From assembly GCA_002746935.1 (NCBI GenBank), contig PDRW01000045.1, positions 1 through 38,156 of the forward strand: DNA of 38,156 nt, written 5' to 3'. The translations under genes and the position numbers were made by a program. The first letter of the stretch is position 1. The number at the start of each line of letters is the position of its first letter. This document shows positions 4,172 to 28,800 of the stretch, in pieces. The notes beneath the pieces are model-generated. The model was not told where the DNA came from. It did not search any database and was given only the letters and a program-made list of their open reading frames with translations. This DNA is from Rhodobacterales bacterium (GTDB lineage: Bacteria > Pseudomonadota > Alphaproteobacteria > Rhodobacterales > Rhodobacteraceae).

Positions 4172-4175
4172 CGGA

Positions 4176-4397: not shown

Positions 4398-4439
4398 GGT
4401 CTCGTTCCCTTGACTGCCCTCTCTGCCGGAGGGGTGTTT

Positions 4440-4732: not shown

Positions 4733-4735
4733 GCT

Positions 4736-4764
4736 ACTTGGCCTCGAATCGCCGAGGTTGTCAA
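4736..4764 (-). promoter_or_regulatory. candidate sigma70-type promoter for nrdHIEF (-35 TTGACA; weak -10)
   Basis: TTGACA (reverse complement of 4759-4764) lies 17 nt upstream of a poor -10 (CCAAGT). The predicted TSS (~4728) coincides with the riboswitch 5' end (~4730). Confidence 0.25.
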
Positions 4765-4888
4765 CATGTAGTGTGCCCTGGTGCGTTTCTTGCAAGGGGT
4801 AGAGGTTGGCCAGCGGCTTTTCTGCAATCAAAACGGGCGGTCACGTCCGTCAAGGTGGTGTAAATCATCGGATTTCCTGAGGCCATGA

Positions 4889-5195: not shown

Positions 5196-5302
5196 GATTC
5201 AGGTTCAAACCGAAATGCTCTAACGGACTTCTGAACCAGCGGAGACCCATGCCCCGGGCAGGGACCGGCCCGGTGTCCCGGACCGGCCTTTCTTTCGCGC
5301 CT

Positions 5303-9851: not shown

Positions 9852-10133
9852 TCAGTTACCGTTCAGCCGATCACGAAGATACTTGCCCGTCTTGAAGAAG
9901 GGAACATGCTTTTCCTCGACTTCGACCGCCTCACCGGTGCGCGGATTGCGGCCGATGCGGGCGTCGCGTTTCTTGACCGAAAAGGCGCCGAACCCGCGCA
10001 ACTCGACCCGGTCGCCGCGCGCCATCGCTTCGATGATCTCTTCGAATACCGTGCTCACGATGCGCTCCACATCGCGCTGGAACAGGTGCGGATTCTCGTC
10101 TGCGATCTTTTGAATCAGTTCCGACCGGATCAT
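9852..10133 (-). CDS. ihfB: integration host factor beta subunit
   Basis: 93-aa product [84 protein letters not shown]…. The start codon is cat at 10131-10133, and the ORF-track N-terminal extension is rejected. Confidence 0.9.
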
Positions 10134-10445
10134 GCAAATCCCCCTGGTGTCAATGCCGGCGCGCGCGTGACGGCACGTCGCACAATGACAACTATAGGCG
10201 GAAACCATTGATCGCGAAAGCCGTGTCGCACCCCGGGCGGACATGGTTTCGGCAGCTTTTTGCCCGATTTTTCATGGAAATCCCGAGCTTTAGGCAGACT
10301 CCCTTGTGGTATTCGAACCTCGCCGGCGCAGATCCGGCCTGAAGCGGCCTTTCACGTGATTCGCCCGAAGCGCCAGTCCCCGGCCCTTGCCATCGCCGGA
10401 GCCCGGTGTCACCTTTCCCGCATAACAGGAAAAAGGCCCGCAGCC

Positions 10446-11816
10446 ATGTCCGATTTTTCCACCGACATCGCCCGCCTCGCCGGATGTTTCGCCACCGGCA
10501 AGACCCGTTCGTTCTCCTGGCGCAAGGCGCAGCTGGCCGCTGTCGAAGACATGTGCCGCACCCATGAGGACCGGATTCACCAGGCGCTGGCCGAGGATCT
10601 GCACAAGCCCGACACCGAGGCCCTGATCCACGAGAGCGCCTATGTCGCCAGCCATGCCCGGCACGCGCGCCAGCACCTTGCCCGCTGGGCAAGGCCGCGG
10701 CGGCAGCCGGTAAACATCATCAACCGGCCCGGCAAGGCCTGGCTTCAGCCGGAGCCGCTGGGGCCGGTGCTGATCCTTTCGCCATGGAACTACCCCTGGC
10801 ATCTGGCGCTGATGCCACTGGTCGGCGCGCTGGCCGCAGGCAATCCGGCGCTGGTGAAGCCCTCCGAACTCGCGCCCGCCACCTCGCAGCTGCTGGCCGA
10901 GCTTGTGCCCGGCCATCTCGACCCCGACGCGGTGCGGGTCGTCGAAGGCGGGGCGGAGGTTGCCGCAGCGCTGCTCGACGACCCCTGGGGGCTGGTGTTC
11001 TTCACCGGTTCCAGCCGCATCGGCGCAAAGGTGGCCGAAGCGGCGGGGCGCACGCTGAGCCCGGTGGTGCTCGAGCTTGGCGGCAAGAACCCGGTGATCG
11101 TCGCGGATGATGCCGATCTCGACATTGCCGCACGGCGGATCGCCTGGGGCAAGCTGCTGAACGCCGGGCAGATCTGTATCGCCCCCGATCATGTGCTGAT
11201 CGGTCCCGGGCGCAGCGCAGCTTTCGGGGAGGCCTTCGGCCGCGCCGTCCGGCAGATGCTGGGCAATGACCCCCAGACGAGCCCCGATTTTGGCCGGATC
11301 GTCAACCGGCGCCATTTCGACCGGCTCGCAGCGATGCCCGGCGAGGGGCGCGTGGTTTTCGGCGGCGCGCAGGACGCGGATGATCTCTATATCGAGCCGA
11401 CCCTGCTCACCGACCTGCCCGACGGCGCCGCGGCGCTCACCGAAGAGGTCTTCGGTCCGATCCTGCCAATGGTCGAGGTTGCCGGAGCCGATGAGGCCCT
11501 CGCCCGTATCAACCGCGGGCCAAGGCCGCTGGCGCTCTATCTGTTCTCGAATGACCGCAGCTTGCAGCGGCGCGTCGTTGAAGAGACCAGCTCCGGCACG
11601 GTGGTGCTGAACGACGTGGTGATCCAGATGACCTCGCCCGATCTGCCCTTCGGCGGCGTCGGGGCGAGCGGCATCGGCAGCTATCACGGGCGCACGGGGT
11701 TCGATGCTTTCAGCCATCTGAAACCGGTGCTCACCAAAGGCACGCGTTTCGACCCGGCCGTGCGTTATCCGCCCTACACCGCGCGCAAACGCCGCTGGCT
11801 CCGGTGGTTTCTCTGA
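10446..11816 (+). CDS. NAD(P)+-dependent aldehyde dehydrogenase, class-3 / fatty-aldehyde dehydrogenase-like
   Basis: 456-aa product with ALDH motifs (…ELGGKNP…, catalytic Cys in …NAGQICIAPD…, …EEVFGPILP…). An AGGAAAAAGG RBS precedes the ATG at 10446. The 62-codon upstream extension in the ORF track is rejected. Confidence 0.85.
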   Translation: MSDFSTDIARLAGCFATGKTRSFSWRKAQLAAVEDMCRTHEDRIHQALAEDLHKPDTEALIHESAYVASHARHARQHLARWARPRRQPVNIINRPGKAWLQPEPLGPVLILSPWNYPWHLALMPLVGALAAGNPALVKPSELAPATSQLLAELVPGHLDPDAVRVVEGGAEVAAALLDDPWGLVFFTGSSRIGAKVAEAAGRTLSPVVLELGGKNPVIVADDADLDIAARRIAWGKLLNAGQICIAPDHVLIGPGRSAAFGEAFGRAVRQMLGNDPQTSPDFGRIVNRRHFDRLAAMPGEGRVVFGGAQDADDLYIEPTLLTDLPDGAAALTEEVFGPILPMVEVAGADEALARINRGPRPLALYLFSNDRSLQRRVVEETSSGTVVLNDVVIQMTSPDLPFGGVGASGIGSYHGRTGFDAFSHLKPVLTKGTRFDPAVRYPPYTARKRRWLRWFL

Positions 11817-11823
11817 CAGCGGA

Positions 11824-11838
11824 CGCGCGCGCGCGCGC
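11824..11838. repeat. (CG)7 alternating dinucleotide tract
   Basis: cgcgcgcgcgcgcgc read directly, 8 nt after the ALDH stop. Confidence 0.9.
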
Positions 11839-11881
11839 CCCGGGTTTCGCCGTTGCCGAAAGGCGTGTCGCCCCGTTTACG

Positions 11882-11913
11882 AAAAGGGCGGCCCCCGGAA
11901 GGGCCGCCCGAAA
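11882..11913. terminator. bidirectional intrinsic terminator hairpin (gggcggccc-ccggaa-gggccgccc flanked by A/T runs)
   Basis: Perfect 9-bp GC stem with a 6-nt loop between the convergent ALDH (+) and beta-barrel (-) genes. A-run upstream and AAA downstream. Confidence 0.6.
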
Positions 11914-11930
11914 CGCTCATTTCACAGCCG

Positions 11931-14900
11931 TCAGAACTTGCCGACCAGGTTCACGAACACGCCATGGCTGTCATATTCGATGTCGGTCAGGTCGTCCGAG
12001 ACATTGCCCCATTCGTAGCCGACACCAATCTTGGCATATTCGCCCAGGTGCCGGTACACGCCCAGAACCGCGCCGGTTTCGGTGGTATCGGTCTCGGGCG
12101 AGAACAGCACCCTGCCCTCACCGAAAATGTCCCACTCATGGACCACATGCCAGTCGGCACGGAGCGCCAGCAGCGCCGCGTCATTTTCGGTGAAGTCGTC
12201 GGTCCCACGGTCGGCGGTCTCCGCCATCCGGTAGCCGAGCTTGCCGCCGATCGTGATCTGCGGGTTCAGGTCGTAATTCGCATCGACCGAGAGCACATGG
12301 CTTTTCTGCTTCGGCCCGTTGCTGTTGCCATTGGCATCCACCTGGTCCTCGCCCGGAAGATCAATCAGCCGCGAGTACCTGAACAGCAGGTTGAGCCGTT
12401 CGTTGTCCACCGGCCGGTAGGCAAAGCCGAGATTGGCGCGCACATATTCGCCATCATGGTAATCGCCTTCGGCGCTGTCCGAGTAGAGCCCTTCGACATC
12501 CCCCAGAAGCGTCCAGTCGCGGTTCAGCGCGTTGCTGTAACCGGCGGAGAACATGTAGGTGTCGCGGTCGCGCGCGGTGCCGTCGCCGTCTTCGGTGCGG
12601 TATTCCAGCCGCAACCGGGCAGAGACCTCTTCGCTCGGCGACCAGGCGGCCCCGACCGAAGCCGCGATACGCTCGAAATCGCCGTCTTCCTTGTCGATCA
12701 CCTCGCCGTAGTCGAAGCTGCCCGAAAGGGTCCAGGCATTGCTGGGTGTATAGCTCACGCCGAAGGTGTTGGTCAGCGATTGCTGGCTCGCGCCCGGCAG
12801 ATCAAAAGCGCTTTCCCCGAAAAGGTTGACGCTTTCGGAAAGCTGGTAGCGCCCACCGGTGACGATCCGGCCCTTGTCGACCAGATCGCTGCCCGCGCCA
12901 TAGCGGGTCGGGTCGAGGGTGAAACCGATGTAGGCTTCACGCTCGGGGCTCGCGGCATAGGCAAGGCGCGCGTTCGCGGCTGCGCCCGACGTGCCGGTCG
13001 ACACCTCGCCGGTGGCGCGCAGCTTTTCGGTCAGCTGCGCTTCCACGCCCACGCCCACGCGGTGGTCGTTGTCCAGCCCGCCGCTGCGCTGAACCGTGAC
13101 CTGACCGAAGGTGTAGACCGTGAGGTCGTCGTTCGGATGCCAATCCACCCGCGCGCCGGCATCAAGCCGGGTGCCGGTCTCTTCAGGCTTGGCCGGGTCG
13201 GTCTTGTCGACATAGCTCGCCCCGACCCGCACGGACCACGCCTTCGAGAAGGCGTATTCGGCATGCGCGCCGACTTCGAGCTTTTCCTTGCCGCTGTCGG
13301 ACACGAAGCGTTCGCCGTCAGCGCCGATGCTCAGCCGGTCGGAAACATCGACCTCGACTTCTCCGCCAAACAGGTACTGGGTCTGATCAATGTCTTCGGA
13401 GACCGACCAGAACCCCGCCTCCTTGCGTTCGGCGTAGAATATGACATGGCCCGGAACCCCGATATTGGCATCTTCGAGGTCCACGAAACCGTCGAGCGCG
13501 TAGGCGTTGGCCGTGCCACTGTCGGCGCCGCCGGACGAAGTGATGGTCAGGCCGCCGTCGGTGGAGGTGGAGCGGGAAAACCCGGGGCCGGAGGTGCGGA
13601 CCGCCTCGACGGTGACATAGCTCTGGCGGCCGAATTCGTAGCGCGCATCAACCCCGGCAACGGTCTGCTCGCCCTGATCGGACTTTTCGCGCATACCCGT
13701 CGCGCCGATGCGCAGGTTGTTTGTCACCCAGGCTTCGGCCCGCCCGCCCAGCACGGTGTTGTCAGCGTCCATGTTGGTCGGGGTGTATTCGTATTGCACC
13801 ACCAGCGACTGGTCGAGACCGCCGGTCTGCGCCCCGGCAGGGCCGCTTGTGCCGGTGTACCACGACAGCGGTCGCGCCAGCGTGATCACGCCTTGCAGGT
13901 GGTCGATCGAATAATCCACCCCCTCCCTGAGCCGCACGCTGTCGACCACGCGCCCGGTGTCGCTGTCGGTAATCAGCACCTGCACATTGGTCGACCCGCC
14001 GGTGATGTCCTGACGCGACAGGAAATAGACCGACCCGCCGGTGCCGCGCAGCACATCGCGCTGCGCCATCGTGTCCGGCTGGGCGGCATAGAGCGTGGCG
14101 CTGAGGCGCGGATCACCGTTTTCGGTGACAGTCGCCGACTGATAGCGAACCTCGGCACCGTAAAGGTTACGCGCTGCGCTGATCAGGTTCGGACTGGTGA
14201 TCCCGGTCTCGAAATCGCCCCAGGTCACACGGGTGGTTTCGTTTTCGGCACGGAAATAGAAGGCCCCCGCGGTCGGGGTGTCGTCATACCAGGTCGAGTT
14301 GTCGCCGTAGGTCGGGTAAACGTCATCGGAATTGCGCAGCCGGTCGAGCACCCGGCGCGGATCCTTGTCGTTCAGACGGTCGAAAAGCTCGTCGATCGGG
14401 CCTTCCTGGCTGTCCACGCCTGCGGTGATCCGCCATCCGCTCTGGGTCTCGCCCTTGGCGTAGAAGGCAGCGCGGGCATCGACATAGCCCTCGTCCTCCA
14501 GCCCGCTGGTGCCGCCGAACCGGTAGCCTGCGGTGATGTCGATGATCCCGGTGGAGAACCATTCCGACGTCGGAATCTCGACATCGCGCACGAATTGCCG
14601 TCCGCCGGCCTTGACCGCGACCACATGGTCGCCGGCGGGCAGGATGCGGCTGACGACGAACTTGCCGGAGGCGTCCACCGGCACGGTCTCGCCCATCACC
14701 GATACCGTACCGCCCGGCGTACCGCGCCCGGCGACGGTGATCGTGCCGCCGCTGAGCGGGATCCGGCGGACGCGCAGGCGGCTTTCGCCCTCGCCCGCCG
14801 CGACCAGCGGCCCGCCGACGGTCTCGTGGCTGGCGAAATGTTCCGCCGTGCGGGTGAGCGTGAGCGGCAGGGTCTCGTCATAGCGCCCCCTGGCATCATA

Positions 14901-15533
14901 GACCCGGAGCGCATAGGCATAATCCCCTTCGCCGCCGGCCGGCATTTTCCACCGCACCTGACCGTTGGCCCGCGTCGGCAGCACCGCCACCGCCGGGTGC
15001 CCGGGTTCGGACAGATCGAGGATCCGCACTTCGGCGCGGCGGATGAAGCTCGGATAGTTTGCCGACGCCCGGAAGGTCACCGTCTCGCCCGCCTGGTAGG
15101 CGGCGCGCAGATCGGCGGTGGCAACGTTGAGCAGACGCGCCCCGCCCAGCCCGTCAAACCGCACGTCGAGCTTTGCCCGGGCGAGCGCAATGTCGGCACT
15201 GCGCTCGGGGTTGTAGGGCGGCAGCGCCCCGGCGAAGTGGGCGTTGTCCACCGAGATCGCAAAGCCGGTCTGGGCGAACTGCCCTCCCGGGGGGGCCTGC
15301 ACCGCTTCGGTGTTGGCGCCCACGGGCAGATCCACCGCAACCCCGGCATTGGCGTGCTGGCAGCCCGGCGCCAGCGGGATCGCCGCGGGGTCGCAACCGA
15401 CCCCCTGCGCGAGGCCCGCGAGTGGCAGCATGGATGCAGCCAGTCCGGCGAGTGCGGTGCTCCTGAGCAGCGCCCCATGGCGGGCGGCGGGCCTGGCGGG
15501 TTTCTTAATCGTCAACATGCTACGCTCCATCAT
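11931..15533 (-). CDS. large outer-membrane beta-barrel protein (1200 aa) with N-terminal periplasmic/Ig-like region; translationally coupled to upstream giant adhesin gene
   Basis: Start ATGATG at 15533/15530 has a GAGGG RBS 7 nt upstream and overlaps the upstream TGA (ATGA). Signal peptide MLTIKKPARPAARHGALLRSTALAGLAASMLPLAGLAQG is followed by a Cys pair and a prealbumin/Ig-like segment (…TITVAGRGTPGGTVSVMGETVPVDASGKFVV…). About 850 aa of amphipathic beta-strand periodicity then end in …HGVFVNLVGKF, the OMP beta-signal with terminal Phe. The opposite-strand 1350-aa ORF is low-complexity antisense. Confidence 0.8.
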   Translation of the reverse strand: MMERSMLTIKKPARPAARHGALLRSTALAGLAASMLPLAGLAQGVGCDPAAIPLAPGCQHANAGVAVDLPVGANTEAVQAPPGGQFAQTGFAISVDNAHFAGALPPYNPERSADIALARAKLDVRFDGLGGARLLNVATADLRAAYQAGETVTFRASANYPSFIRRAEVRILDLSEPGHPAVAVLPTRANGQVRWKMPAGGEGDYAYALRVYDARGRYDETLPLTLTRTAEHFASHETVGGPLVAAGEGESRLRVRRIPLSGGTITVAGRGTPGGTVSVMGETVPVDASGKFVVSRILPAGDHVVAVKAGGRQFVRDVEIPTSEWFSTGIIDITAGYRFGGTSGLEDEGYVDARAAFYAKGETQSGWRITAGVDSQEGPIDELFDRLNDKDPRRVLDRLRNSDDVYPTYGDNSTWYDDTPTAGAFYFRAENETTRVTWGDFETGITSPNLISAARNLYGAEVRYQSATVTENGDPRLSATLYAAQPDTMAQRDVLRGTGGSVYFLSRQDITGGSTNVQVLITDSDTGRVVDSVRLREGVDYSIDHLQGVITLARPLSWYTGTSGPAGAQTGGLDQSLVVQYEYTPTNMDADNTVLGGRAEAWVTNNLRIGATGMREKSDQGEQTVAGVDARYEFGRQSYVTVEAVRTSGPGFSRSTSTDGGLTITSSGGADSGTANAYALDGFVDLEDANIGVPGHVIFYAERKEAGFWSVSEDIDQTQYLFGGEVEVDVSDRLSIGADGERFVSDSGKEKLEVGAHAEYAFSKAWSVRVGASYVDKTDPAKPEETGTRLDAGARVDWHPNDDLTVYTFGQVTVQRSGGLDNDHRVGVGVEAQLTEKLRATGEVSTGTSGAAANARLAYAASPEREAYIGFTLDPTRYGAGSDLVDKGRIVTGGRYQLSESVNLFGESAFDLPGASQQSLTNTFGVSYTPSNAWTLSGSFDYGEVIDKEDGDFERIAASVGAAWSPSEEVSARLRLEYRTEDGDGTARDRDTYMFSAGYSNALNRDWTLLGDVEGLYSDSAEGDYHDGEYVRANLGFAYRPVDNERLNLLFRYSRLIDLPGEDQVDANGNSNGPKQKSHVLSVDANYDLNPQITIGGKLGYRMAETADRGTDDFTENDAALLALRADWHVVHEWDIFGEGRVLFSPETDTTETGAVLGVYRHLGEYAKIGVGYEWGNVSDDLTDIEYDSHGVFVNLVGKF

Positions 15534-18500
15534 TGCCCGGCCCTCACGATCGTGGTTTCGATCCGAAGCTGGGTGCGGCCCGCCTTGCGCCACTCGGCGC
15601 GTATGCGGTCTTCGACCAGTTTCATCAGCGCCCTGCCCTCGGTCACAGCTTCGGGCCCGGCCGTCGCCGGCAGATGCCAGGCGAGGCGCAGCACGATCGG
15701 CTCACCGGCAAGCGCCGGCACCATCCGGCGGATGCCGTTGTCCAGCGCCTGGCCGATGGCCATCTGGCCGTCGGCCCCCCTGGTGAAGGCGGCGCGGTTG
15801 AGGTCCACCCGCACGACCTTGCCGATGCTCGCACCGAAGTTGATCTCCGCCATCACGCCCGGGGTCAGCCGCACGACGCGCGGGTTTTCCGTGGTCGGGC
15901 GGTAGCCTGCGGGCAGGGTGCGCTCGTCAAGCTTGATGATGAAGTTCGAGCCACGGTCTGCCGGCAGCGCCGCGCAGGGCACCGAGTAGAGGCCGTTTTC
16001 GTCCGTGGTCACCACGGTGCCGTCCGGCGACACCAGCCGCACCCCCGGGATGCCGCGCTCGACCAGCGGTTCCGGCGTGCGGGCGAGCTTGCCCTTGCCG
16101 CCGCCATAATGCTGATCGGTGATACCTTCGGACCCGGAGCCGCCCGGCGGATCCTGGTAGCCGTTGCCGTTGTGGTCTTCGAACACCTTGCCGATCACGT
16201 CGGAGCAGTCGAACACCGCTTCCGGCAGGATCCGCACATCGGCGGTCGCCTCACCCACCAGCAGATCGTCGGTGTTGGCATCGAAAACCGAGACCGAGTT
16301 GGTGTGAACGCCGGAACGTGCGCCGTTGAGAACACGGGCGTCGATGCCCAGGGTCAGCGTCGTCTCGGCGGGAAGGATGACATCCTCCCAGGTGACCACC
16401 AGCCCCTCGACCGTGACCGTTACCGACGCGCCGTCGATCGTGGCGCTGGCCGGATCGGCCAGGAAATGGCCGGGCAGCGTGTCCACCACATCCACCGGAC
16501 CGACGACGAAGTCATTGTCGTTGGTCACGGTGATCGTGTAGGGCACCGTCTCCCCGCGCCGGACAATATCGGCCGGCGTGGTCTTGGTGAGCGTCAGATT
16601 GTCAGCCGTCGAGGTCTCCGTGAACACGAAACGCGTCGGGTCGTCTTCGGTGTTGCCATCGGTGTCGATGCCGTTGTCGGACAGATCCGAAATCGGCTCC
16701 GGTTCTCCCGGAACGCCCGGCACGAACACCGGCAGCGCCTCCGCCAGAACCTGGTTTTCGATCCCGCCGGAATTCACCGCCTGCACGGTAACGGTGATCG
16801 AGGCCGTGTAGGTCGCCATTTCACCGATCTGAAGCGCACCTTCCGCCGAGCCCATGCTGGCGCTGACAAAGTCCGGGCCAGAGGCAAGCGTCAGGGCGTT
16901 GCCGTTGAGGTCGACCGCGGTATCCGTCAGCTGCACGTCCTCCAGCGGCGTGTTGCCGGTGTTCTCGACCGTGATCGTGTAGTCGATCCGGTCACCGGCA
17001 TCGTGGCGGCCGTCGCCGTTGACGTCGACATAGGTCTGGGTCTTGGTCGCTTCGATCCCCGGCAGCGCCGCCTGCACCACGGTTTCGACCGCGGTATCGC
17101 ACAGCGTCGGGATGGCCTGCGAGCAGATCTGATACTCGACCGTATGCGGACCCGCCGGATAGCCCGGCGCCAGCGTGATGAGCGCCGTGCCCGGATCGAG
17201 GGTCACGCCCGGATCGGCGTTGAGCACCGTGATGGTCACATTGCCAAGCGTCGCCGGGCCGTTGTTGAGCAGATCCGAGTCCAGCATCGAGGTGGTTGTG
17301 CCACCATCGGTGGTGAACGGCGGGAAGGTCTCCGGGTTTGCGTCGATCGAGCCGACCTGAACCGTCTCGCTGTCGTTGTCGGTGACCTCTTCACCGGGGT
17401 TCGGGCCCCAGGTGCCGGTCACGCTGGCGTTGTTGACCACCTGATTGGCGAGCACATCCGCCTGGGTCACCGTATAGGTGGCCGTGTAGGTTGTGCTGTC
17501 GACATCGCCCGGGTTCATCACCGGGATCGGCCCGCCGTTCAGCACGATATTGGGCAGAAGATCGGTGACCGTGACATTGGTCAGGATCATGTTGCCGGTG
17601 TTGGTGACGGTGAAGCTGTAGGGGATCACGTCACCCGGAACCGCGCCGTTGGGCAGGCCGGAGGTGTCGGCCACCTTGTCGAGCTCGATCGCCGGCACCT
17701 GGGCAATCGGCACCACTGTCGGGGTGTCGTTGTCATTGGCGGTGCCGCTGTCGTCGGTCACCGGGTTGCCCCCCGGATCGTCGCCGCTCACCGTGGCCTG
17801 GTTGGTCACCTGACCGGCGATGATGTCGGCCTGGGTGAGCGTGTAGGTCGCGGTAAAGGTGGTGCTGTCGACCGCCCCCGGCACCAGCGAGGGAATCGGG
17901 CCGCCGCTGATCTGGATGTTCGGCAGGGTGTCGGTCAGCGTCACGTTGGTGAGCAACACGTTGCCGGTGTTGGTCACGGTGAAGCCATAGCTGATCACAT
18001 CGCCCGCCTGCGCCGGCGTGCCAAGCGCCGATGTGTCGGCGGTCTTCACCAGCGCGATGGCCGGACCTTGCACGATCGACGTGACCAGCGGCGTGTCGTT
18101 GTCATTGGCCGTGCCGCTCACGTCGGTGACATCGGTGCCGAACGGGTCGGTACCGGTCACGGTGGCAGAGTTGGTCACCTGGCCGGCGTTGAGATCGTCC
18201 TGGGTGATCGCATAGCTGCCGGTGAAGGTGGTGCTGTCGACGGCACCCGGAGCAAGCGTGGCAATCGGACCGCCGTTGAGCGTCATCCCGGGCAGGCTGT
18301 CGGCCAGGGTGATGCCCGTCAGCGTCACCGGGCCGGTGTTGGTCACGGTGAAGCCATAGGTGATCACGTCGCCGACGGCCACCGGGTTCGAGAGCCCCGA
18401 GATGTCGGAGGTCTTGATCAGCGCAATGGCGGGCGCAACGTTGTGGCTCACCGGGGTCGGGTCGTTTTCACCGTTTTCATTGGCCTGACCGTTGTTGTTG

Positions 18501-21500
18501 GGGTCCGGATTGGTGCCGTTGTCCGACTGGTCGGCAAGCTGCGGGTTGGTGGCCGAGGTCTGGCCGGACCACTGCCCTGTCGCATCGACCACGGCCTGGT
18601 TCTCGTAGTTCGCGGGCACAGATGTCGGCTTCACGCGGATTGTGAAGGCCAGGTTGCAGCTGCCCGAGATGCCGAGATTGAAGCCGGTGGCGACAACCGT
18701 ATTGCCTGCGCCGTTGAAACCAGCATTGAGGCCGCCACAGCTGCCCGAGGGTGCCGCGACGATCGCATAGGTGCCGTTGGCCAGCGGATCGGTGGCCGGG
18801 TTCCCCGGGGTGGCGAGGGTGCCGAACAGCGGAGCGGCCCCGGCGATCTGGTCGGTCACCGCGATATTGGTGAGCGGTTCCTGGCTGAAGTTTTCAACCA
18901 CCAGACCGAAGGTCACATTGAACGACCCGTCGTCATTCGCCGTCACCGCGCCCGACACCTGCTTGGCGATGCCGACACGGGCCTGCGAGATGAGCGCGAA
19001 GTCGTAGTCGACGCCGTCGTCGTCTTTCGGCACGTTGATCGTGCTGATCGTGGTGTTGTTCGTACGGTTACCGCCAAGATTGAGCGGGTTCGACGTCGGA
19101 CCGGTGGTGAGGTATGCGACATCCGGCACGGAGGACGGAATGACCTGGAGCCTCACCGTATAGGTGCCTTCCGGCAGGTAGTCGAAACTGTAGTCGCCGC
19201 TGGCATCGGTGGTGATGGTGCGGGAAACGGGGTTGCCGTTCAGATCCGTACCGTTCAGCGTGACCTGAACGCCCACAACACCGCTGTCGTTGTTGTTCAT
19301 CACCTCGTCTTCCGCGAAGTCGCGGAACACCGAGCCCGAGAGCGACGAGGAAACCACCTGCACCGTGGCGGTATCGGTATTGTCGCTCTCGTCGACATCG
19401 AAGCTTTCGGTCGAGACGGTCGCCGAGTTGGTGCGGCTGTAGGGATCGGCATTGGCGGCAGTCACGCGCACCGGCACGGTGATATTGATCTGGCTGCTCG
19501 CGTCGACGGTGCCAAACTCACAGTTGAACGACGTGCCTCCCGCGGCACCGGTGCAGCTGTTCTGGCTGGCATTACCGCTGGCCACCACAGCCGTGGGCGC
19601 GCCGGTCAGCACCATGTTGGCGGGCAGGCTGTCGGCCACCGAAACCACTTCGGCCTCGGCCGTGCCGCCAGCGGGAGCCGCGACAGTCACCCCGATGGTG
19701 AAGTTGAAGTCTTCCCGCAGCCCGACAGGCGCCGTCGGTCCGGTCTTGGTGAGCGAAATGTTGGTGCGGGTCCGCAGCGTGGTATCCGCCGAGGCATTGT
19801 TGTTGAGCAGGTTGCTCTCCCAGCCCTGGTCGGTCTCGTCGGACTTGACCGACACGTTGTTGACCGCCGTTCCCTTGGCCAGGCCACGCATGGTCAGGGT
19901 CACCTGTTCGGAGGAATTCGCCTTGATGAAGGGCCAGGTGCATTCCAGCGTGCCGCCAACGTCGCCGACCGCCGGAACCGTGCCGCAGCTCACGGGGCTG
20001 TTGTTCGAGGTCGCCGTGAAACTCTGATAGCTCAGCAGCGAGGGCGGCAGAGTATCGGTCATCACCACGTTTTCAGAGGTCGAGGGGCCGTTGTTGCGCA
20101 CCGTCACCGTATAGGTGACGTCGCCACCGACCGCGACCGGATCAATGTTGTCGGTCTTGTTGACCAGCAGATCGACCACCGGACGCTGAACCGGCACCGT
20201 GACCGCCGCGTTGTTGTTGGTGGGATCAATGTCGGTTGTGGTGGTGGTAATCGCGGCATTGTTGGTGATGTCGGTGCCGCGGGTGGCGTTGGTCGGCTGC
20301 ACCACGATGGTCACGGTCTTCTGGGCACCGTTGTTGATGCTGCCCATGTCGCAGGTCAGCGTCCTGTTGGCCGCGGTGGTCACCGTGTTTGCGGTGATCC
20401 CGGAGCAGCTGCCGCCGGGGGCATTGGCCGAAACGAACAGCACGTCCAGCGGCAGCTCATCGGTGATGGTCACACCGTCCGCCCGGCTGAGGCCGTTGGC
20501 AAGGTTGCTCGCGGCAACGACGTAGGTCAGGTTCTGGCCAGCGGCAACCGGGCTGGGGTTGGCGGTCTTGGTCGCCCGTATGTCGGCCCGCGCCTCAAGC
20601 GTGTAGTTCGCAACGTTGGTGTTATTGTTCAGGTCCGGGTCGGGCACATTGCCCGAATAGGCGTTGGCCCGGTTGTAATACGAACCGCCATTGCCGCCGG
20701 GGCGCACCTGGAAGGTGATGACCGGACAATCGTTGCCCTGAGTACAGACCGGCAGCGTCGGGATCGTGCAGACCAGATTCCGCCCGTTGGGATTGAGAGG
20801 CGAGGTCGAACAATTGGAGTCCGTGAAGGTATTGGCCGCGTTTCCGGCAACCGAGAGCGAGACGAAGCCCGGGTTCGGTCCGCTCGCCTGGTCGTTGATC
20901 AGGAAGCGGACCAGGTCACGCACCTGGACGTTGGTCGAGACGGCAGGGCCGTCGTTGACGACTTCGATCGTGTAGGTCAGCAACTCGCCCGCCGCAACCG
21001 TGGTGGGGTTCGCCGATTTGAGCGGATAGATGTCGGCCGAAGCTGCCGGCGTGCCGGAGGTCGAGGTGTGGGTGATGGTGTTGTTCGGCAGGATCGCAAC
21101 ATCTTCGGGGATATTGGAATCCGGCGAGCTGACGTGCAGCTGGTTGGCGATCGTGCCGGCCGCCGTCGCCGTGGTGGTGAAGGTCACCGAGGGCGTGGTG
21201 GCATTGGGCGGCAGCGGCGCGGCCTGGGTATAGACGCGCGTACAGGTCACCTGAATCGGACCCGCACCGCTGGTGGGATTGCAGGTCCAGCCGTTCGCGT
21301 TGACGATACCGTCGAGTGTGAGCCCGGCGGGGATCGTGTCGACCATCTCGATGGTGCCCCAGAACGCGGCATTGCCGATGTTCGAGGTCGAGATCGAGTA
21401 CTCATAGCCGCTGTTGCCCTCCACCATGAGCGGCGGATTAGGGCCGGTCTTGTTGGCGCGCAGATCGACCACCGGCTCGGCGATGGTGACAAGACCGTCG

Positions 21501-22780
21501 CTGTCGCTGTTGTTGGCCGGGTTCTGATCGGTCGGGCCGGTCGAGGAAACCGTGACGGTGTTCTGGGCATTGCCCGCACCCACGACGGTCGCTTCGACAA
21601 TGACATTGCCAAGGCTGGTGTTGTTGCCCGCACCCGACGGGTCGGGGCGGGTGCAGCTCACCTCCTGCCCGGAGGTCGTGCAGGTCCAGCCGCCCTCGAT
21701 GACATTGTCGATCTGGTAGTTGCCCGGAATCGTATCGTTGAGCGTGAGCCCGCTGGGCGCATCGCCGGTGTATCTGGGCGCAAGGGTGAAGGTCACCGTA
21801 TCGCCCACCAGCAGGTTGCCGGTGTTCGGGCTGCGACTCTTGCTGACCGCCACGTCGGTTCCCTCGGTGACGTCCAGAGTGCCGGTGGCGGTGTTGTTGT
21901 CGGCATTCGGGTCGGGCGGGTTCTGGTTGATGACACTCGCCGAGGCGGTGATGTCAGACCCGCCGATCGCGGCGACCTGGCCGGTGAAGGTGCGGGTGAC
22001 GGAGGCGCCAACCGGGATCGAACCGGGAATGTTGCAGTTCCAGGTGCCACCGCTCAGGCTGCATCCGGCGGGCGCCGACATGTTGGTGATGCCGGTGGGC
22101 GCAGGGAAGGAAATGGTGAAGCCGTCGCTGGGGTGCGGGCCGTTGTTGGTCGCCGTCCAGACGAAATCGACCATGCTGCCGGCGGCAGCGGAAGAAGGGA
22201 TCGTGAGATCAAGCTGAATTTCCGCACCCCGCGTCAAGGTGGTGGTTTCGAGGTCGGAATTGTTGCCGGTGTTGGTCTCGACACCGGCAACCGTCGCCAC
22301 CTCGGCACCGACCTGAATCGAGCCCTCGATGTCGCTGGTCACCTGGACGACCGGCGTGATGTTTTCGTCGGCGGCCAGGGGCGGCACGGTGCAGGTCACG
22401 GTCAGCGGACCGGCGCCGGTGGTGGGCGCGCAATTCGTCAGCGGCGCGCTGACACCGACCAGAGAGGCGTTGGCGGGCACGTCGAAGGTCAACTGCGTTG
22501 CAGGCGCGCCCTGCGTGCCCGCGTTGGTGATCCGCAGGGTGTAGTCGATCACCCCGCCTGCCGCGTAGGTTACTCCGCCGTTCTCGCCGTCTTCGATGGC
22601 AAGCAGCCAGTCCACATTCTGAGCCCGCGCCTGGCCGGCACCCGACAGCACCCCGAGACAGAGCGCGAAGGTGAGAACCAGAAAACGCGCAAGAAAACCA
22701 AAACGCCGCACGGAAACCGTCCGGGGCTCAATATCACCATTCCACATCACAAGACCGCCTGTTTGCATTTGCCGCCGCAT
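15530..22780 (-). CDS. giant secreted surface/adhesin-like protein (2416 aa): Sec signal peptide, multiple DUF11-type 'conserved repeat domains', two SdrD-B/Cna-B-type domains, unique C-terminal ~110-aa domain
   Basis: N-terminal signal peptide …[31 protein letters not shown]. More than 10 diverged ~120-aa repeats carry …DVI.[16 protein letters not shown].LP… motifs, including three near-identical tandem copies. Cna-B-like segments read …[43 protein letters not shown]… and …[24 protein letters not shown]…. The protein is Thr/Asn/Gly/Val rich. The start is uncertain (ATG at 22780, or ATG at 22747 preceded by AGGCGG). The 2522-aa plus-strand ORF over the same DNA is an antisense artefact. Confidence 0.85.
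   Translation of the reverse strand: [2416 protein letters not shown]
17360..18440. repeat. three tandem ~369-bp (123-codon) near-identical repeats inside the adhesin gene
   Basis: Period measured between gtcgttgtcattggc landmarks at ~17728 and ~18097. Protein copies are [10 protein letters not shown]…/[10 protein letters not shown]…/[10 protein letters not shown]…, each carrying …FTVTNTGN…GAVDSTTFT…. Confidence 0.75.
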
Positions 22781-23240
22781 ATTGCGGGCATCCTGACTGA
22801 TTCTATTTCCGTTTCCTATTCATTTTCCAAGCGATTTTTTCCAATTGGTGAACAAAACAAGGGGCAATCGTCGCGTCGTTGCCACACCGGCATCAGCCAG
22901 CACGGCGTTATCCACAGGCAAGGTTCCGCCGGGCCGCAAATTCCGCAGATTCTCTCACACCGCCACCTCTTCTCCCGCACCGCCACCTCCGCCCGGCCGA
23001 CAGCGGTTCGCGGACCGGCCGGACGGATCCAAATGCCACGGGCACCCCCCTTGCCGGTCCGGTTTCACCGGATTCCCTGGCCCCGATTTCTCCAAAACTG
23101 ACCGATCCGGGCGTGAAATGACCACAATCCGCACCGACAAGACCGGCAACGCGAAACGCACCGGCAGGATTGACACGCTGCCGGACCGGAGGGGAAAACC
23201 GGGCAGGGTTTGCAAAAGGCATTCGGGCAGGAAAGCAGCA
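22781..23240. promoter_or_regulatory. 460-bp divergent intergenic control region (adhesin operon leftwards, C-PCP-TE gene rightwards) with AT-rich island 22800-22860
   Basis: The only markedly AT-rich stretch in the window (gattctatttccgtttcctattcattttccaagcgattttttccaattggtgaacaaaacaa). On the minus strand it contains TAGAAT, and on the plus strand TTGACA at 23170-23175 with a poor -10. No precise sites could be assigned. Confidence 0.3.
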
Positions 23241-25778
23241 ATGAACGACATGAAGGTGTCAGGCTCAGACAACGTCGTCGCGACCTTCCCGGCGTCGATC
23301 ACCCAGAAACGCACCTGGTTCATGGAGCAGATCCACCCCGGCGACCGGGGCCTGATCATCGCGCTGCACTGGGAATTGCGCGGGTCCGTCACCAGTGATG
23401 CGGTGGAACGTGCCTTCCAGACGATCACCGACCGTCACGAGGTCTTCCGCACCCGGTTTCGCGAACGCGACGGCGAACCGGTGCAGGAGGTGCTGGCGCA
23501 TGTGGATTTCAGGCTCGCCCGGCTCGATCTGCGCAATGTGCCGGAGGCCGACCGCGCCCGCAAGATCAGCGAGATCGCCAGCGAACATGCCGGGGAACCC
23601 TTCGACATGGGGCGTGCCGGGCTGATCCGGGTGGCGATGGTCCAGACCGGACCCGACCGCGCCGCGCTGCTGATCGCGGTGCACAACAGCGTGTTTGACG
23701 GCTATTCCATCGGCGTGCTGGGGCACGAGCTCGGCACCCTGCTGGAGGCGGAAGCAAGCGGCCAGCCCGCCGAACTGCCGGAACTGGCGCTGCAATACGG
23801 CGATTTCGCCATGTGGCAGGCCGATTACGCCGCCAGCGGCGCCTTTGCCGGGGAAGAGGCCTATTGGGCGCAAAAGCTCGGCGGCATGGCCTGTTTCGAG
23901 ATCCCGCCCGACCGGCCGCGCAGCCCCGGGCCTACCGAAAGCCGCAACTACGCCCGCGATCTGCCGGCGGATTTCGAGCCCCGCCTGGCCGGGACGGCAA
24001 AGGCGCTCGAAACCTCGCTGTTCACCCTCGGCACCACAGCCTTCGCGGTTGCCCTCGAACGCTTCACCGGACGGCGCGACGTGAGCTTCGCAATCCAGGC
24101 CGCGGGCCGGAACGAGGTGGACCTCGAACCGCTGATCGGCATCTTCACCAATCCGATGGTGCTGCGCTTCGACATCGACCCGGAGGCCCCGCTCTCGGAC
24201 CATGCCCGGGCGGCGCGCGACATCATCAATGGCGCCCTCGCCCACCAGATGCTGCCCTTCGACAGGGTGGTGCAGGTGCTCAACCCGCCGCGCGACCCGC
24301 TGCGGATCCCGCTGGTGTCGATCATGTTCGGCCTGCAACCCGGCTTCCTGAAGACCCGCCGCTATGGTGCGATCGAACTGGTTCCGGAAATCTCGGATGT
24401 GCCCGGCACGCTCTACGATCTCAATGTCAACATTGCCGGGCACAAGACCGGCTGGCGGCTGGTGATCGACTACAACGCCAGGCTGTTCGACGAAGCGACG
24501 ATTGCGCGGTTTGCGGCGCTGCTGGTCGAGGTGCTCGACAGCCTGATGCACCACGCGGAGAGGCCGGTCGGCACGCTCCGGGCGGAGACGGAGCCCCGAC
24601 CGGAGGCCCGACCTGAGACTGCCGCCGGGGAAGCCCCGCTTGCGGTGGCGCCTTCAGAGGCGGCAGAGGAGGGAACCGCCGAAGGGGCAGCCACGATCGA
24701 AAGCCTGCGCGCGATCTGGTCCGATGTGCTCGCCATCCCGGCCGACAGTGCCACGGGCAATTTCTTCGACCTCGGGGGCCATTCGATCCTTGCGCTGCGG
24801 ATGCTGGCGATGGTCGCCGAAAGTTTCGGCCAGCGCCCGTCGATCCAGGCCTTCCTCGCCGACCCGACCCTTGAAGGACTGGCCGGCGTGCTCAACCCGC
24901 CCGCGCCCTCCCCTGCCCCGCAGACCGGCCCGGCGGCGGCGCCCGATACCGCCCCGAACCCGATCTGGGATCTCACCGAGCTGCGGGCGTCTTCGGCCGA
25001 CGCACCGGTGCTGATCGCCGTCAATCAGCCGTTCATGTTCCACGCCCTGGCGCGCGAGATGGTTGCCGATTGCGCCGTGGCGAGCCTGAGCGTTCCCGGC
25101 GCGGCAGAATTGCAGGCGCTCGAACAGGCCGGGCTCGATAAGGCGATCGAGGCCGCTCTCGCCCCGGTGCTTGCCCGCTACGCCGGGCGGCCGCTGATGT
25201 TTTGCGGCCTCTGCGTCGACGGGCTCGTCGCCCTCCGCCTCGCCCAGCGCCTGCGCGACGAGGGGCAGAACACCGCCCTCGTGGCGATGATCGACAGCTG
25301 GGCGCCCGGGTCCAGCCGGGCGTTTTCGCGGCTGCGCAAGAGCCTCGATCGCTGGCACATCCGCTTCCGGCGGATCGGCTATTATCTCGGGCTCCGGCGT
25401 CAGGGCGAGATCGGCTGGACCGATGTGCTGCGCCAGAACGATCTTGCCGCCGGGATCATCGCCCGGCTCACCGGGGTGCCCGCGAAAAACGAGACCGAGA
25501 CGCTGGTCGATGACACCGTCGAGGTGCTGGTCGGCCTGACCCGGGGCTATCGCTTCGCCCCCTATGATGGCGAGGTGGTGCTGTTCATCACCCGCTCGCA
25601 GGCGATGGTGCCGAAGGACGGCGTGCTTGGCTGGTCGGGCCTGCTGGCGGCGGATGTGACCGCCTATCCGGTCAACGGCTGGCATGGCGACGCACTGATG
25701 CGCAGCGGGTTCGAGCGGATCATCGGCGTGCTGGACGTGAAGGCACAGAGACTGCGCCGCGCCACGCCGCCGGGGTGA
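23241..25778 (+). CDS. stand-alone NRPS protein: condensation domain (variant HNxxxDG) - PCP - thioesterase (Cys nucleophile)
   Basis: 845-aa product. AGGAAAG RBS precedes ATG 23241, and an in-frame alternative ATG lies at 23118. C-domain motifs include …LIAVHNSVFDGYS…. The PCP reads …FFDLGGHSILALRM…. The alpha/beta-hydrolase TE reads …MFCGLCVDGLVALRLAQRL…IDSWAP…GWHGD…, aligning to GxSxG with Cys at the nucleophile position. Confidence 0.85.
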   Translation: MNDMKVSGSDNVVATFPASITQKRTWFMEQIHPGDRGLIIALHWELRGSVTSDAVERAFQTITDRHEVFRTRFRERDGEPVQEVLAHVDFRLARLDLRNVPEADRARKISEIASEHAGEPFDMGRAGLIRVAMVQTGPDRAALLIAVHNSVFDGYSIGVLGHELGTLLEAEASGQPAELPELALQYGDFAMWQADYAASGAFAGEEAYWAQKLGGMACFEIPPDRPRSPGPTESRNYARDLPADFEPRLAGTAKALETSLFTLGTTAFAVALERFTGRRDVSFAIQAAGRNEVDLEPLIGIFTNPMVLRFDIDPEAPLSDHARAARDIINGALAHQMLPFDRVVQVLNPPRDPLRIPLVSIMFGLQPGFLKTRRYGAIELVPEISDVPGTLYDLNVNIAGHKTGWRLVIDYNARLFDEATIARFAALLVEVLDSLMHHAERPVGTLRAETEPRPEARPETAAGEAPLAVAPSEAAEEGTAEGAATIESLRAIWSDVLAIPADSATGNFFDLGGHSILALRMLAMVAESFGQRPSIQAFLADPTLEGLAGVLNPPAPSPAPQTGPAAAPDTAPNPIWDLTELRASSADAPVLIAVNQPFMFHALAREMVADCAVASLSVPGAAELQALEQAGLDKAIEAALAPVLARYAGRPLMFCGLCVDGLVALRLAQRLRDEGQNTALVAMIDSWAPGSSRAFSRLRKSLDRWHIRFRRIGYYLGLRRQGEIGWTDVLRQNDLAAGIIARLTGVPAKNETETLVDDTVEVLVGLTRGYRFAPYDGEVVLFITRSQAMVPKDGVLGWSGLLAADVTAYPVNGWHGDALMRSGFERIIGVLDVKAQRLRRATPPG

Positions 25779-25801
25779 ACCCGGGTTTGAACGACCGGAG
25801 C

Positions 25802-25839
25802 AAAAGCCCCGCCCCGCTGACTTCGGGGGGCGGGGTTTT
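25802..25839. terminator. bidirectional intrinsic terminator (AAAA-gccccgcccc-loop-ggggcggggc-TTTT)
   Basis: 9-bp GC stem flanked by an A4 run on one side and a T4 run on the other. It lies between the convergent stop codons at 25778 (+) and 25842 (-). Confidence 0.7.
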
Positions 25840-25841
25840 CG

Positions 25842-28800
25842 TCAGATCCCCCGGCGCGCGCCGCGGCGATAGGATTTGAGCGTCGGTTTCTTCGCGGCAC
25901 CCTCACCGCCCTCACCGCCCTCACCGGAACCCCGGCTGTCGGCAAACCCCGCGAGTTCGGCGATCGTCGGATAGTCCAGCATATGGCGCGCCTCGACATT
26001 GAGGCCCGCGTCGATCATCCGCGCCGCAATGCGGAACAACGTGAGCGAATCCGCCCCGAGCGAAAACAGCGTCTGGTCGGTGCCGACCTCGTCGACCCCA
26101 AGCACCTCGCACCAGATGGCGGCCATCCGGCGTTCGGTCTCCGTCTCCGGCGCGGTATGCTGCACCGCCACACCGGCCGGAACCTCGGGCTCCGGCAGCG
26201 CCTTGCGGTCGAGCTTGCCATTGGCGGTCTGCGGCAGGGCATCAAGCCTCACCCAGGCCGTGGGCACCATATAGCCCGGCAGCCGCCCGGCGAGCGCGCG
26301 GCCGAGCGCCTCCGGCGCCGGCGCCTGCCCCGGTTCGGCCACCACATAGCCCACAAGCTGGTCGTCGCCGCGCGGCGACCTGCGCAGCGCCGCCGCCGCG
26401 GCGCGCACCCCGTCGAGCTCACGGATCCGCGCTTCGACCTCGCCAGGCTCGATGCGGAACCCCCTGAGCTTGATCTGCCCGTCGGTGCGGCCGAGCACCT
26501 GCAGCGTGCCATCGGCCAGCCGCCGGGCAAGGTCGCCGCTGCGGTAGAGCCGCTCCGCCTTGCCGTTCACCACCACTTCGCGGAAGGCCTGGCGCGTCAG
26601 CTCCGGCTGGCGGAAATAGCCTTTCGCGAGGCCCGCCCCGCCGATATTGAGCTCGCCCACCGCGCCCACGGGCAGAAGCTGATCCTGCGCCCCGAGCACA
26701 TGCAGCGTGGTGTTGGCCACCGGATGGCCGATGGTCACCGGCGCGCCGGGCGACACCCGCGAGATCGCCGACCAGATGGTGGTTTCGGTGGGGCCGTAGA
26801 CGTTCCACAGCGCCGCGCCCCCGGCGGTCAGACGCTCGGCCAGATCCTGCGGCAGGGGCTCGCCGCCCGCCAGCATGGTGAGCCCCGGCGCGGGCGCAAA
26901 TCCGGCCTCGGTCACCATCTGCCAGAGCGTCGGCGTGGCCTGCATATGGGTGATGTCACCCTTGCCGAGCCGCTCCACCAGCCGGAAGCCGTCAAGCACA
27001 TCCTCCGGCGCGGCAATCACCACCTTGCCGCCACGGATCAGCGGCAGGAACATCTCCAGCACGGAAATGTCGAACATCGTCGTGGTCACCGCGAGCAGCA
27101 CGTCGTCGGCCGCAAACCCCGGCTCTTCGGCCATCGAGGCCAGCAGGTTCACCACCGAGCGCTGGGAGATCTCGACCCCCTTGGGCGTGCCGGTGGAGCC
27201 GGAGGTGAAGATCACATAAGCGGTATCGTCGCCGCTGAACGCCACCGGCGCCGGCACCCCGCTGACACCAACCCCGGCGAGCGGAAGCGAGGTGAGGCCA
27301 AGCCCGGCGGCATAATCCGGCACCTCCGCCCGGTCGTGCACGATCGCCGAAACCTCTGCGGTTTCAAGGATCATGCGCAGCCGCGCGGGCGGCTGGGCGG
27401 GGTCTATGGGCACATAGGCATTGCCGCTCTTCATCACCCCGAGCAGGGCGACCACACATTCCATCGAACGCGGCAACGCCACCGCGATGCGCCCTCCCTC
27501 GCCGACGCCCGCATCCTGCAACGCCCGGGCGATGGCATCGCTCCCCGCGGCAAGGCCGCGATAGGAGATCCGCTGATCGCCGGATTCGAGCGCGATCCGG
27601 TCCGGGGTTTCGGCGGCCACATGGTCGACGAGCTGATGCACGGTTTCGAAATCCGGCAGCGGGGCTTCGGTGCGGTTGAGCTCATCGGCAAGCCAGGCCC
27701 GTTGCGCCGTACTCTGCACCGGCAGCGTGGCGACCGGTCGCGCGGTATCCGCCGCCATCTCCTCCAGCACGGTTTCCAGATGCCCGATCCAGCGCCGGAT
27801 TGTCTCCGGCTCGAACACATCGGCGTTGTAGTCGACATCGAGACGCAGACCGTCGCGGCGCTCGACGATGTTGAAGAACAGATCGAAATTCACCGCCGCC
27901 TTCGGGTTCGGCGCCGCCGTCATCCGCAGGGGCCCCATGTCGACGCTCTCGCCAAGGCGTTCGAGGTTGAACTGCACTTCGGTCAGCGGCACCCGGTCGA
28001 GCGCGCGCGCCACATCGAGCTCCCGCACCAGCGTGCCGAAGGTGTAATCCCGATGGTCGAGCGCGGCGGCGGTCCGTTCGGCGACGAACCGCAGATGCTG
28101 GGCAACCGTCGCCCCCGGCGCCACCCGGGCGCGGATCGGCAGGAAGTTGACGCAATGGCCCACGAGGTTCGGGTTGTCGAGCAGGGCCTGCCCGCCGGTC
28201 GGCACCCCGAGGACCACGTCGTCAGAACCGCTGAGCCGTCCGAGCACGATTTGCAGCGCGGCAAACAGGGTCGCGAACAGGGTACAGCCCTCCGCCGCCC
28301 CCGCCTTGCGCGCGGCCCGCATCACCTCGCCCGGGATCTGCGCGGTGACGGTGCCGCCGCGGTAGGATTTCACCGCCGGGTGCGGGTGGTCTGACGGAAG
28401 CTCCGGCACCTCCGGCACCTCGGCATATTCCTCATGCCAGAAGGCGCGCGCCTCAGGGGCCGGGCCCTTGCGCGCCTTTTCCAGCGCGTGGGCAGCGAAG
28501 GAGGGCGCGGGCACCAGCCCGGCGGGCGTGCCGCTGACCGCCTCGCGGTAGAGCGCGGCAAGCTCCTGCGTGAGCACATTGAACGACCAGCCGTCGCAGA
28601 CGATGTGATGCGCATCGAGCACCAGCACATGGTCTTCCGCCGAGCGGCGCACGAGAAAGGCGCGCAAGGGCGGGCCGGTGACGATGTCGATCTCGGTGGC
28701 GGAATCCTCGGCCAGAAGCGCGGCGAACGCCGCTTCCGGGTCATCCGCGCCGCTGAAATCATGCAGCGCGAGCGGCATCGGGAACGGGTCGAGAATGTCG

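Follow-up and report, generated by a model that had tools for sequence, protein, structure and literature searches.

The 38,156-nucleotide stretch of contig PDRW01000045.1 analyzed here (the window), from a Rhodobacterales metagenome-assembled genome (MAG), raises a question of transport: how might a giant Sec-dependent repeat protein, a putative adhesin, reach the cell surface, and what is the role of the large beta-barrel protein encoded next to it? In that genome both are annotated as "hypothetical" (PIE06573.1 and PIE06572.1, respectively). The initial annotation of this DNA had proposed that the barrel is a dedicated translocator or anchor for its neighbor. The answer that we favor is that the two genes probably make up a self-contained, bicistronic passenger/barrel module for a surface fiber, the split form of an uncharacterized autotransporter-like family. 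The module is real, conserved, and far more widespread than is visible from the window sequence alone: beyond its anatomy and operon coupling, the two genes strictly co-occur, the C-terminal module of the passenger is family-wide, and homologues include natural fusions and forms with OmpA domains at the junction.

The pair lies head-to-tail on the minus strand, with signals for joint expression within and around it:

15530-22780, minus strand: adhesin gene, 2,416 aa, encoding a signal peptide, a stalk of CLIPPER (DUF11), DUF7507 and SdrD-B immunoglobulin (Ig)-like domains, and a putative C-terminal docking module (C-module); open reading frame (ORF) call, Pfam and NCBIfam.
11931-15533, minus strand: barrel-protein gene, 1,200 aa counted from the ATG; ORF call.
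15530-15533, minus strand: 4-base ATGA stop/start overlap (adhesin TGA 15530-15532, barrel ATG 15531-15533), indicating translational coupling.
22800-22829, minus strand: promoter-like site, TGGAAA-18-TAGAAT, just 5' of the adhesin start, identified by consensus match alone.
11886-11909, minus strand: hairpin resembling an intrinsic terminator, with a 10-bp stem (9 G-C pairs) followed by TTTT, 22 bp past the barrel stop codon.

At the gene junction, ...GCC GGG CAA TGA overlaps ATG ATG GAG... (...caATGAtgg...). In the 11.7 kb scanned, the only sigma-70-like site is the one 5' of the adhesin gene (22829-22800), and no terminator comparable to the hairpin at 11909-11886 was found between the two genes. 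The overlap, with the promoter-like site and the terminator hairpin flanking the pair, argues that the adhesin and barrel genes, as read from the sequence, are one bicistronic operon.

Is this adjacency particular to one contig? A scan of one genome per species yielded 166 confirmed barrel relatives, and 79 loci were kept and searched (tblastn) with the last 250 residues of the adhesin. In 74 of them a C-module match, at 38-77% identity, lies directly 5' of the barrel gene. Four of the other five (L032, L043, L056, L068) are uninformative, since their barrel genes begin at a contig end with no upstream sequence; the pairing therefore holds in 74 of 75 loci with upstream sequence, across Rhodobacterales and Hyphomicrobiales. 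Seventy loci were measured for the distance from the adhesin stop to the nearest in-frame barrel start; every value lies between -29 and +52 bp, and 28 loci have a possible 4-base NTGA overlap. No third conserved gene (chaperone, protease, regulator) was found around the pair when the neighborhoods of the loci were compared. The adjacency on which the initial annotation relied is thus a conserved one, found also in Gammaproteobacteria. It contradicts the idea that the barrel is an ordinary transporter (a TonB-dependent receptor, LptD, usher or porin) that merely sits beside an unrelated adhesin gene, as do its recurrence across orders and classes and the existence of natural fusions; with no Plug, TonB-box, LptD or Usher domain in the barrel protein either, we regard this explanation as very improbable.

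The 1:1 translational coupling fits a stoichiometric complex. Together with the conserved pairing, it would equally suit a stoichiometric anchor, in which the barrel is only a docking base for the C-module and another machine (e.g., a type II secretion system) takes the adhesin across the outer membrane. A precedent for such an arrangement is SprB/SprF, in which type IX secretion system (T9SS) cargo with a C-terminal domain (CTD) of type B is held by an adjacent cognate PorP/SprF-like barrel (PMC9143113). One locus, L059, also has a C-module gene with no barrel gene of its own downstream. We consider this alternative unlikely, largely on the evidence of the fused homologues: these join the stalk covalently to periplasmic OmpA domains and the barrel, implying a crossing of the outer membrane in cis that a separate exporter would hardly explain. 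In addition, no other secretion genes are conserved beside the pair, or beside the two fusions whose neighborhoods were examined.

The fusions came to light in a search with a profile built from 58 barrels against 1.84 billion cluster representatives (50% identity clusters), which matched 4,044 clusters at E ≤ 1e-3, of which 1,226 also pass E ≤ 1e-30. Among the best 149 representative clusters, 15 or more consist of a single protein of 2,134-6,889 aa whose C-terminus is the barrel module, in the order signal peptide (evident at the N-terminus in most), stalk, C-module, OmpA repeats in some, and barrel. In nearly all, the alpha/beta domain that ends the C-module lies 20-150 residues ahead of the barrel module; in three it lies ~535 residues ahead, with OmpA repeats in between. 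One fusion occurs in the cultured genus Deferrisoma, where it is annotated as "SdrD B-like domain-containing protein". The two fused genes with examined neighborhoods (P0290, P0306) stand alone among unrelated genes, none common to both. An alphaproteobacterial MAG (L058:2960-13309) has a genuine in-frame fusion, with no Ns, whose junction interrupts the alpha/beta domain on one side and lies near barrel residue 107 on the other; an apparent adhesin-barrel fusion in another locus (L016) is an artifact of a 100-N scaffold gap. In L085 (4588-7619), genes for ExbB, two ExbD and a TonB_C-like protein, with TPR genes before them, lie directly upstream of a fused 5,031-aa member and share its strand; the arrangement may be fortuitous, or may hint that some members are energy-coupled.

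In a further subgroup of ~1,700 aa, common in Gammaproteobacteria (e.g., Microbulbifer, Thiohalomonas), the signal peptide is followed by three Pfam OmpA domains, then by the Ig-like domains and the barrel. Here too the partner is present: on a metagenomic contig the gene 5' of such an OmpA-type barrel ends in a C-module (hidden Markov model E 5e-113) and its stop abuts the barrel start, and in Microbulbifer thermotolerans a 3,864-aa CLIPPER/SdrD_B protein precedes a barrel with three N-terminal OmpA domains. Members of this size (P0307, P0408, P0436 and relatives) owe the labels "flagellar motor protein MotB" or "OmpA family protein" solely to the OmpA repeats, and the 1,100-residue Ig-plus-barrel part has been overlooked.

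Since the fused homologues exist, the window holds the split version of an architecture found elsewhere as a single chain, with the break exactly between the C-module and the barrel signal peptide. The initial annotation had spoken of a split-autotransporter-like or usher-like logic. The first half of that phrase is upheld by the natural stalk/C-module/barrel fusions; the second finds no support, as there is neither a chaperone nor a pilin.

What the split and fused forms have in common is the C-module, a family-wide unit of ~230 aa made up of an SdrD-B-like domain and a small alpha/beta domain:

15824-16228, minus strand: first half of the C-module, an SdrD-B/CnaB-like domain with an invariant Cys pair, C2192/C2269.
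15533-15823, minus strand: second half of the C-module, an alpha/beta domain of ~97 aa, beta-beta-beta-alpha-beta-alpha-beta, in an AlphaFold2 (AF2) model with pLDDT 91-98.

The Cys pair closes a 77-residue loop, and in split and fused forms alike the alpha/beta domain is always directly ahead of the barrel module. The "unique" ~110-aa terminal domain of the initial annotation therefore has to be revised: it is the second half of a larger module conserved throughout the family. A Pfam search and a PDB profile search assigned this domain (the last ~97 aa of the adhesin) to no family. An OmpA-like identity for the last ~100 aa was ruled out (hhalign against OmpA-C, 2.4% probability; PDB profile search empty), there being no sequence or profile match to OmpA_C with its Asp/Arg motif for peptidoglycan binding. 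A putative class of short cargo, C-module proteins of 200-430 aa, was likewise dismissed, most being contig-end fragments. The short C-module protein of Mesorhizobium amorphae (L080:1-12919) results from an adhesin gene split into three overlapping ORFs (1,224+, 1,658 and 330 aa) ahead of a 1,309-aa barrel gene, probably through draft-assembly frameshifts or because it is a pseudogene.

The rest of the passenger is signal peptide and stalk:

22622-22780, minus strand: N-terminal region of the adhesin, with a Sec-type signal peptide (...FLVLTFALCLGVLSGAGQARA|QN), read from the sequence.

The strongest hydrophobic segment of the adhesin is at residues 30-47, and the actual start codon may be a few codons further downstream. 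Pfam finds DUF11/CLIPPER in 12 stretches (E 9e-111), DUF7507 in four (E 8e-91), and SdrD_B; NCBIfam adds TIGR01451 (E 1e-72) and TIGR04226 (E 9e-19). DUF11 and DUF7507 have recently been renamed CLIPPER and CLIPPER_2, and their tandem arrangement behind a signal peptide is that of the CLIPPER (DUF11) fibrillar-adhesin stalk proteins. The 2,416-aa Sec-dependent DUF11/SdrD-B repeat protein of the initial annotation is thus borne out by the ORF, its hydrophobic N-terminus and the domain matches. A motif scan found no RTX (GGxGxD), LPXTG or CXXCH motifs in the adhesin. Its composition is low in Lys (1.0%), with 13.3% Thr and 8.1% Asn, and the 24 Cys of the mature protein form 12 sequential close pairs. 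According to PMC12617251, CLIPPER domains fold with covalent cross-links, and some DUF11 domains, not all, form an intramolecular Lys-Asn isopeptide bond.

The barrel protein divides as follows:

15267-15533, minus strand: signal peptide, Cys47-Cys58 loop and linker (residues 1-89), of low AF2 confidence.
14574-15266, minus strand: two Ig-like beta-sandwich domains, residues ~90-320, from AF2.
11934-14573, minus strand: giant predicted beta-barrel region, residues ~321-1200, with ~40 long strands and a beta-signal-like end, ...VNLVGKF; AF2 and DSSP.
13854-14396, minus strand: most conserved segment of the protein, residues ~380-560, with two helices, a conserved loop (390-417) and a small beta insert; AF2 and homologues.

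The AF2 model (pLDDT 74.9, pTM 0.67) places beta-sandwiches at ~92-320, and DSSP run on it counts ~41 strands of at least eight residues between residues 323 and 1199, interrupted at ~380-560 by the two helices and the small insert. Given the DSSP output, the pTM and the literature, these strands may form a single closed barrel of ~40 strands, with the two Ig-like domains presumably periplasmic. The segment at 1-89, which includes the only two Cys of the protein, gives way to a short linker or to OmpA repeats in homologues that are fused or gammaproteobacterial. Across the 58 homologues, K1199/F1200 hardly vary. The stretch of strongest conservation, within residues ~380-417 (window 14283-14396), reads LNDKDPRRVLDRLR..DLYPTYGDDST.YDDTPT. 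When the protein is modeled alone, AF2 places residues 390-417 poorly (pLDDT <50), as might be seen where a segment needs a partner in order to fold. Residues ~380-560 are a candidate plug or partner-binding element.

Searches against PDB (by sequence) and NCBIfam returned no match for the barrel, and Pfam only weak ones (DUF7840, DUF2490, DUF481, OMP_b-brl). By these searches the protein appears to belong to none of the characterized families tested: TonB-dependent transporter, LptD, usher, Omp85/TpsB, autotransporter or T9SS component. Most of what the initial annotation had said of the locus stands: the gene coordinates, the lengths and the TGA/ATG overlap (the 4-base ATGA); for the barrel protein, the signal peptide, the Cys pair (47/58), the ...VNLVGKF end, and the Ig/prealbumin-like segment, which corresponds to the AF2 beta-sandwiches preceding the long strands. 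The absences that it listed also hold: Pfam and NCBIfam detect no POTRA/ShlB, Usher, Plug/TonB_dep_Rec, LptD, Autotransporter or Por_Secre_tail domain and there are no RTX nonapeptides, while domain annotation of the window ORFs reveals no ATP-binding cassette (ABC) or membrane fusion protein (MFP) genes of a T1SS (type I secretion system) and no chaperone genes. Its caveat that the barrel might prove to be a TonB-dependent transporter, LptD or usher finds no support in the domain content.

How could such a module work? Both proteins would reach the periplasm via Sec. The barrel would be integrated into the outer membrane by BAM (beta-barrel assembly machinery), its two Ig-like domains remaining in the periplasm. 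The C-module would then dock on the barrel's periplasmic side or within it, a step in which the Ig-like domains and the conserved 380-560 insert probably take part; the stalk, ~2,100 residues of disulfide-bonded and probably isopeptide-locked Ig-like domains, would traverse the wide barrel lumen and project from the cell, while the C-module would be retained as stopper and anchor.

One argument for export by the barrel, rather than anchoring alone, is topological. OmpA domains bind peptidoglycan, and their presence at the C-module/barrel junction in homologues places that junction in the periplasm. By our own estimate, at an assumed ~4 nm per domain, the length of a stalk of 20-55 Ig-like domains far exceeds what the periplasm could accommodate. 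A fused chain thus has no way to bring its stalk outside other than a passage across the outer membrane in cis, and the sole evident conduit is the barrel of that chain. Either a wide pore or a retained module, or the two together, would agree with the 12 Cys pairs, including that of the 77-residue C-module loop, and with the self-cross-linking CLIPPER fold. The coexistence of split and fused forms makes an autotransporter-like logic hard to escape.

Several points weigh against this reading. The steps that follow barrel insertion (physical contact between C-module and barrel, movement of the stalk along the lumen, display at the surface, a role in adhesion) are inferred, and the single closed barrel is itself a prediction. 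No known plug or docking domain is similar to the alpha/beta domain. Barrel-only homologues without an adjoining adhesin exist: several representatives of ~870-1,000 aa, and the fifth locus without a C-module, L057 of Paracoccus solventivorans, a truncated gene (9989-12640, 883 aa) that matches from barrel residue ~332 on and follows an AraC-type regulator with no adhesin upstream. In L059 the region upstream of the barrel gene is cut by a contig end, and the C-module match comes from a second gene of cargo-like type, encoded on the other strand (3791-5999), convergent with the barrel gene and followed by a PhyH dioxygenase gene, not by a barrel gene. One barrel might thus serve more than one cargo. 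Finally, adhesin orthologues are colinear across many genera at 45-65% identity over their full length of ~2,400 aa, a degree of conservation beyond that of typical, fast-evolving adhesins, which could reflect a structural role in place of an adhesive one.

This last point leads to another possibility, that the giant protein is an S-layer-like component or envelope scaffold, not an adhesin, attached to a barrel that serves mainly as an outer membrane-to-cell-wall connector or large pore like Deinococcus SlpA. We judge this improbable, more so than the anchor described above. The window barrel protein has no peptidoglycan-binding domain, and stalk composition and length vary widely in distant loci, as in fibrillar adhesins: the stalks of more distant Hyphomicrobiales, and of other loci, are built differently (23 DUF7507 stretches; CshA_repeat), and the C-module is constant. 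A scaffold of this kind also overlaps the passenger/barrel model, since it would still need export and anchoring.

If the passenger/barrel model is right, what would follow from it? Surveys describe CLIPPER-stalk fibrillar adhesins as common in Gram-negative bacteria, and the literature searched gives no route across the outer membrane for those that are Sec-dependent. The present family offers a concrete candidate for that route in Proteobacteria, carried by two genes or one fused gene, and would, if self-sufficient, explain how such adhesins get to the surface. It is widespread, including cultured and tractable Yoonia, Celeribacter, Pseudovibrio, Microbulbifer and Deferrisoma, under annotations ("hypothetical", "OmpA family protein", "flagellar motor protein MotB") that are uninformative or wrong. 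A single ~40-strand pore would exceed SprA as the largest known single-chain barrel and raise the question of its assembly by BAM, and the module would offer a compact scaffold for surface display.

The flanking genes are unrelated to the pair: a convergent aldehyde dehydrogenase gene (10260-11816) and a divergent C-PCP-TE gene for a nonribosomal peptide synthetase (NRPS; 22845-25778, plus strand). The latter belongs to an adjoining secondary-metabolite cluster (22845-36824), with a 3,314-aa hybrid of NRPS and polyketide synthase (25842-35786, minus strand; acyl-ligase, ACP, KS, AT, ACP, class-III aminotransferase, C, A, PCP) and, beyond it, a phosphopantetheinyl transferase gene (35841-36824, plus strand). 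The domain order of the hybrid is reminiscent of iturin/mycosubtilin-type lipopeptide starters. Elsewhere in the window are genes for the small and large subunits of ribonucleotide reductase (624-1601 and 1617-3764, minus strand) beside an ORF with a glutaredoxin domain (4176-4685, minus strand) and, farther along, trpF, a gene for a PALP-domain enzyme, and an HU gene.

How does the module compare with known systems? No functional description or named system for this adhesin/barrel pairing was found in the literature searched. The defining features of types Va, Vb and Ve, ushers, TonB-dependent transporters, LptD, T1SS and T9SS are lacking. There is no N-terminal Plug domain with a TonB box in a 22-strand barrel, as in TonB-dependent transporters; no OstA/LptD N- or C-terminal domain or LptE partner, as in LptD; no Usher domain (24-strand barrel with plug, NTD and CTDs), PapD-like chaperone or pilin gene, as in chaperone-usher systems. 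Unlike T1SS adhesins of the LapA/RTX type, the passenger has a signal peptide and no GGxGxD motifs, with no ABC/MFP genes in the window. T9SS SprB/SprF is similar in having a giant repetitive surface protein whose C-terminal domain is matched to an adjacent outer-membrane barrel; that system, however, needs the multi-protein T9SS, is restricted to Bacteroidota and has a small barrel, whereas the host here is a Rhodobacterales MAG with no T9SS genes and no Por_Secre_tail or type-B CTD match, as would mark T9SS cargo or SprA. We know of no fused forms of the SprB/SprF type.

The nearest plug-in-barrel analogies are LptD/LptE and the MtrB sheath around MtrA. Neither has a sequence or family relationship to the present pair, which has no lipoprotein partner, no heme motifs and, in contrast to the 26-strand MtrB/PioB porin-cytochrome sheath, no CXXCH multiheme partner; the partner here has instead a putative extracellular stalk of ~2,100 residues. 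For the barrel itself, a possible relative is the uncharacterized outer-membrane beta-barrel superfamily of Solan et al. (2021), single-chain barrels predicted to have 38 or 40 strands, more than the 36 of SprA, and assigned no function (PMC8346858). The ~41 DSSP strands fit, and the two families may be the same; the accessible part of that survey has no adhesin partner, C-module or fusions.

On the passenger side, proteobacterial fibrillar adhesins of the CLIPPER/CshA type share the signal peptide, the CLIPPER stalk and a periplasm-type C-terminal anchor, described as OmpA-like in PMC12617251 and PMC10952558, whose searched passages name no outer-membrane component for them. The window adhesin differs in having no OmpA domain; some fused homologues have the C-module and then OmpA repeats.

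The closest functional parallel would be type V secretion, with a Sec-dependent passenger and a dedicated barrel, fused or split. As in two-partner secretion (type Vb) and Salmonella ZirT/ZirS, a split inverse-autotransporter passenger/barrel pair (PMC2270342), the genes are separate, adjacent and apparently co-transcribed, and the passenger has a conserved recognition module; in contrast to both, there is no Omp85 barrel, POTRA, TPS domain or intimin-type barrel, the module is C-terminal rather than N-terminal, and the product is apparently retained rather than released. Inverse autotransporters (type Ve) have the opposite domain order, and Pfam finds no 12-strand barrel of the intimin/invasin type here. 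Classical autotransporters (type Va) also encode a Sec-dependent N-terminal passenger together with a C-terminal barrel, in the order of the fused homologues that stand alone in their genomes, and the barrel likewise ends in an aromatic, beta-signal-like residue. The differences are that the window passenger and barrel occupy two genes (one polypeptide in the fused clusters), that the barrel region has ~880 residues and ~40 predicted strands instead of 12, that Pfam and NCBIfam detect no Autotransporter match and there is no alpha-helical linker, that Ig-like domains, with or without OmpA domains, presumably periplasmic, lie between passenger and barrel, and that cross-linked Ig-like domains in a chain, not a beta-helix, make up the passenger. 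A bolder claim, which we hold tentatively and at rather less than even weight, is that this family is a distinct, self-sufficient route of outer-membrane secretion and anchoring, non-homologous to type V, in which a single-chain barrel of ~40 strands, the largest known, would pass already folded, disulfide- and isopeptide-locked Ig-like domains and hold the fiber by a dedicated C-terminal plug module.

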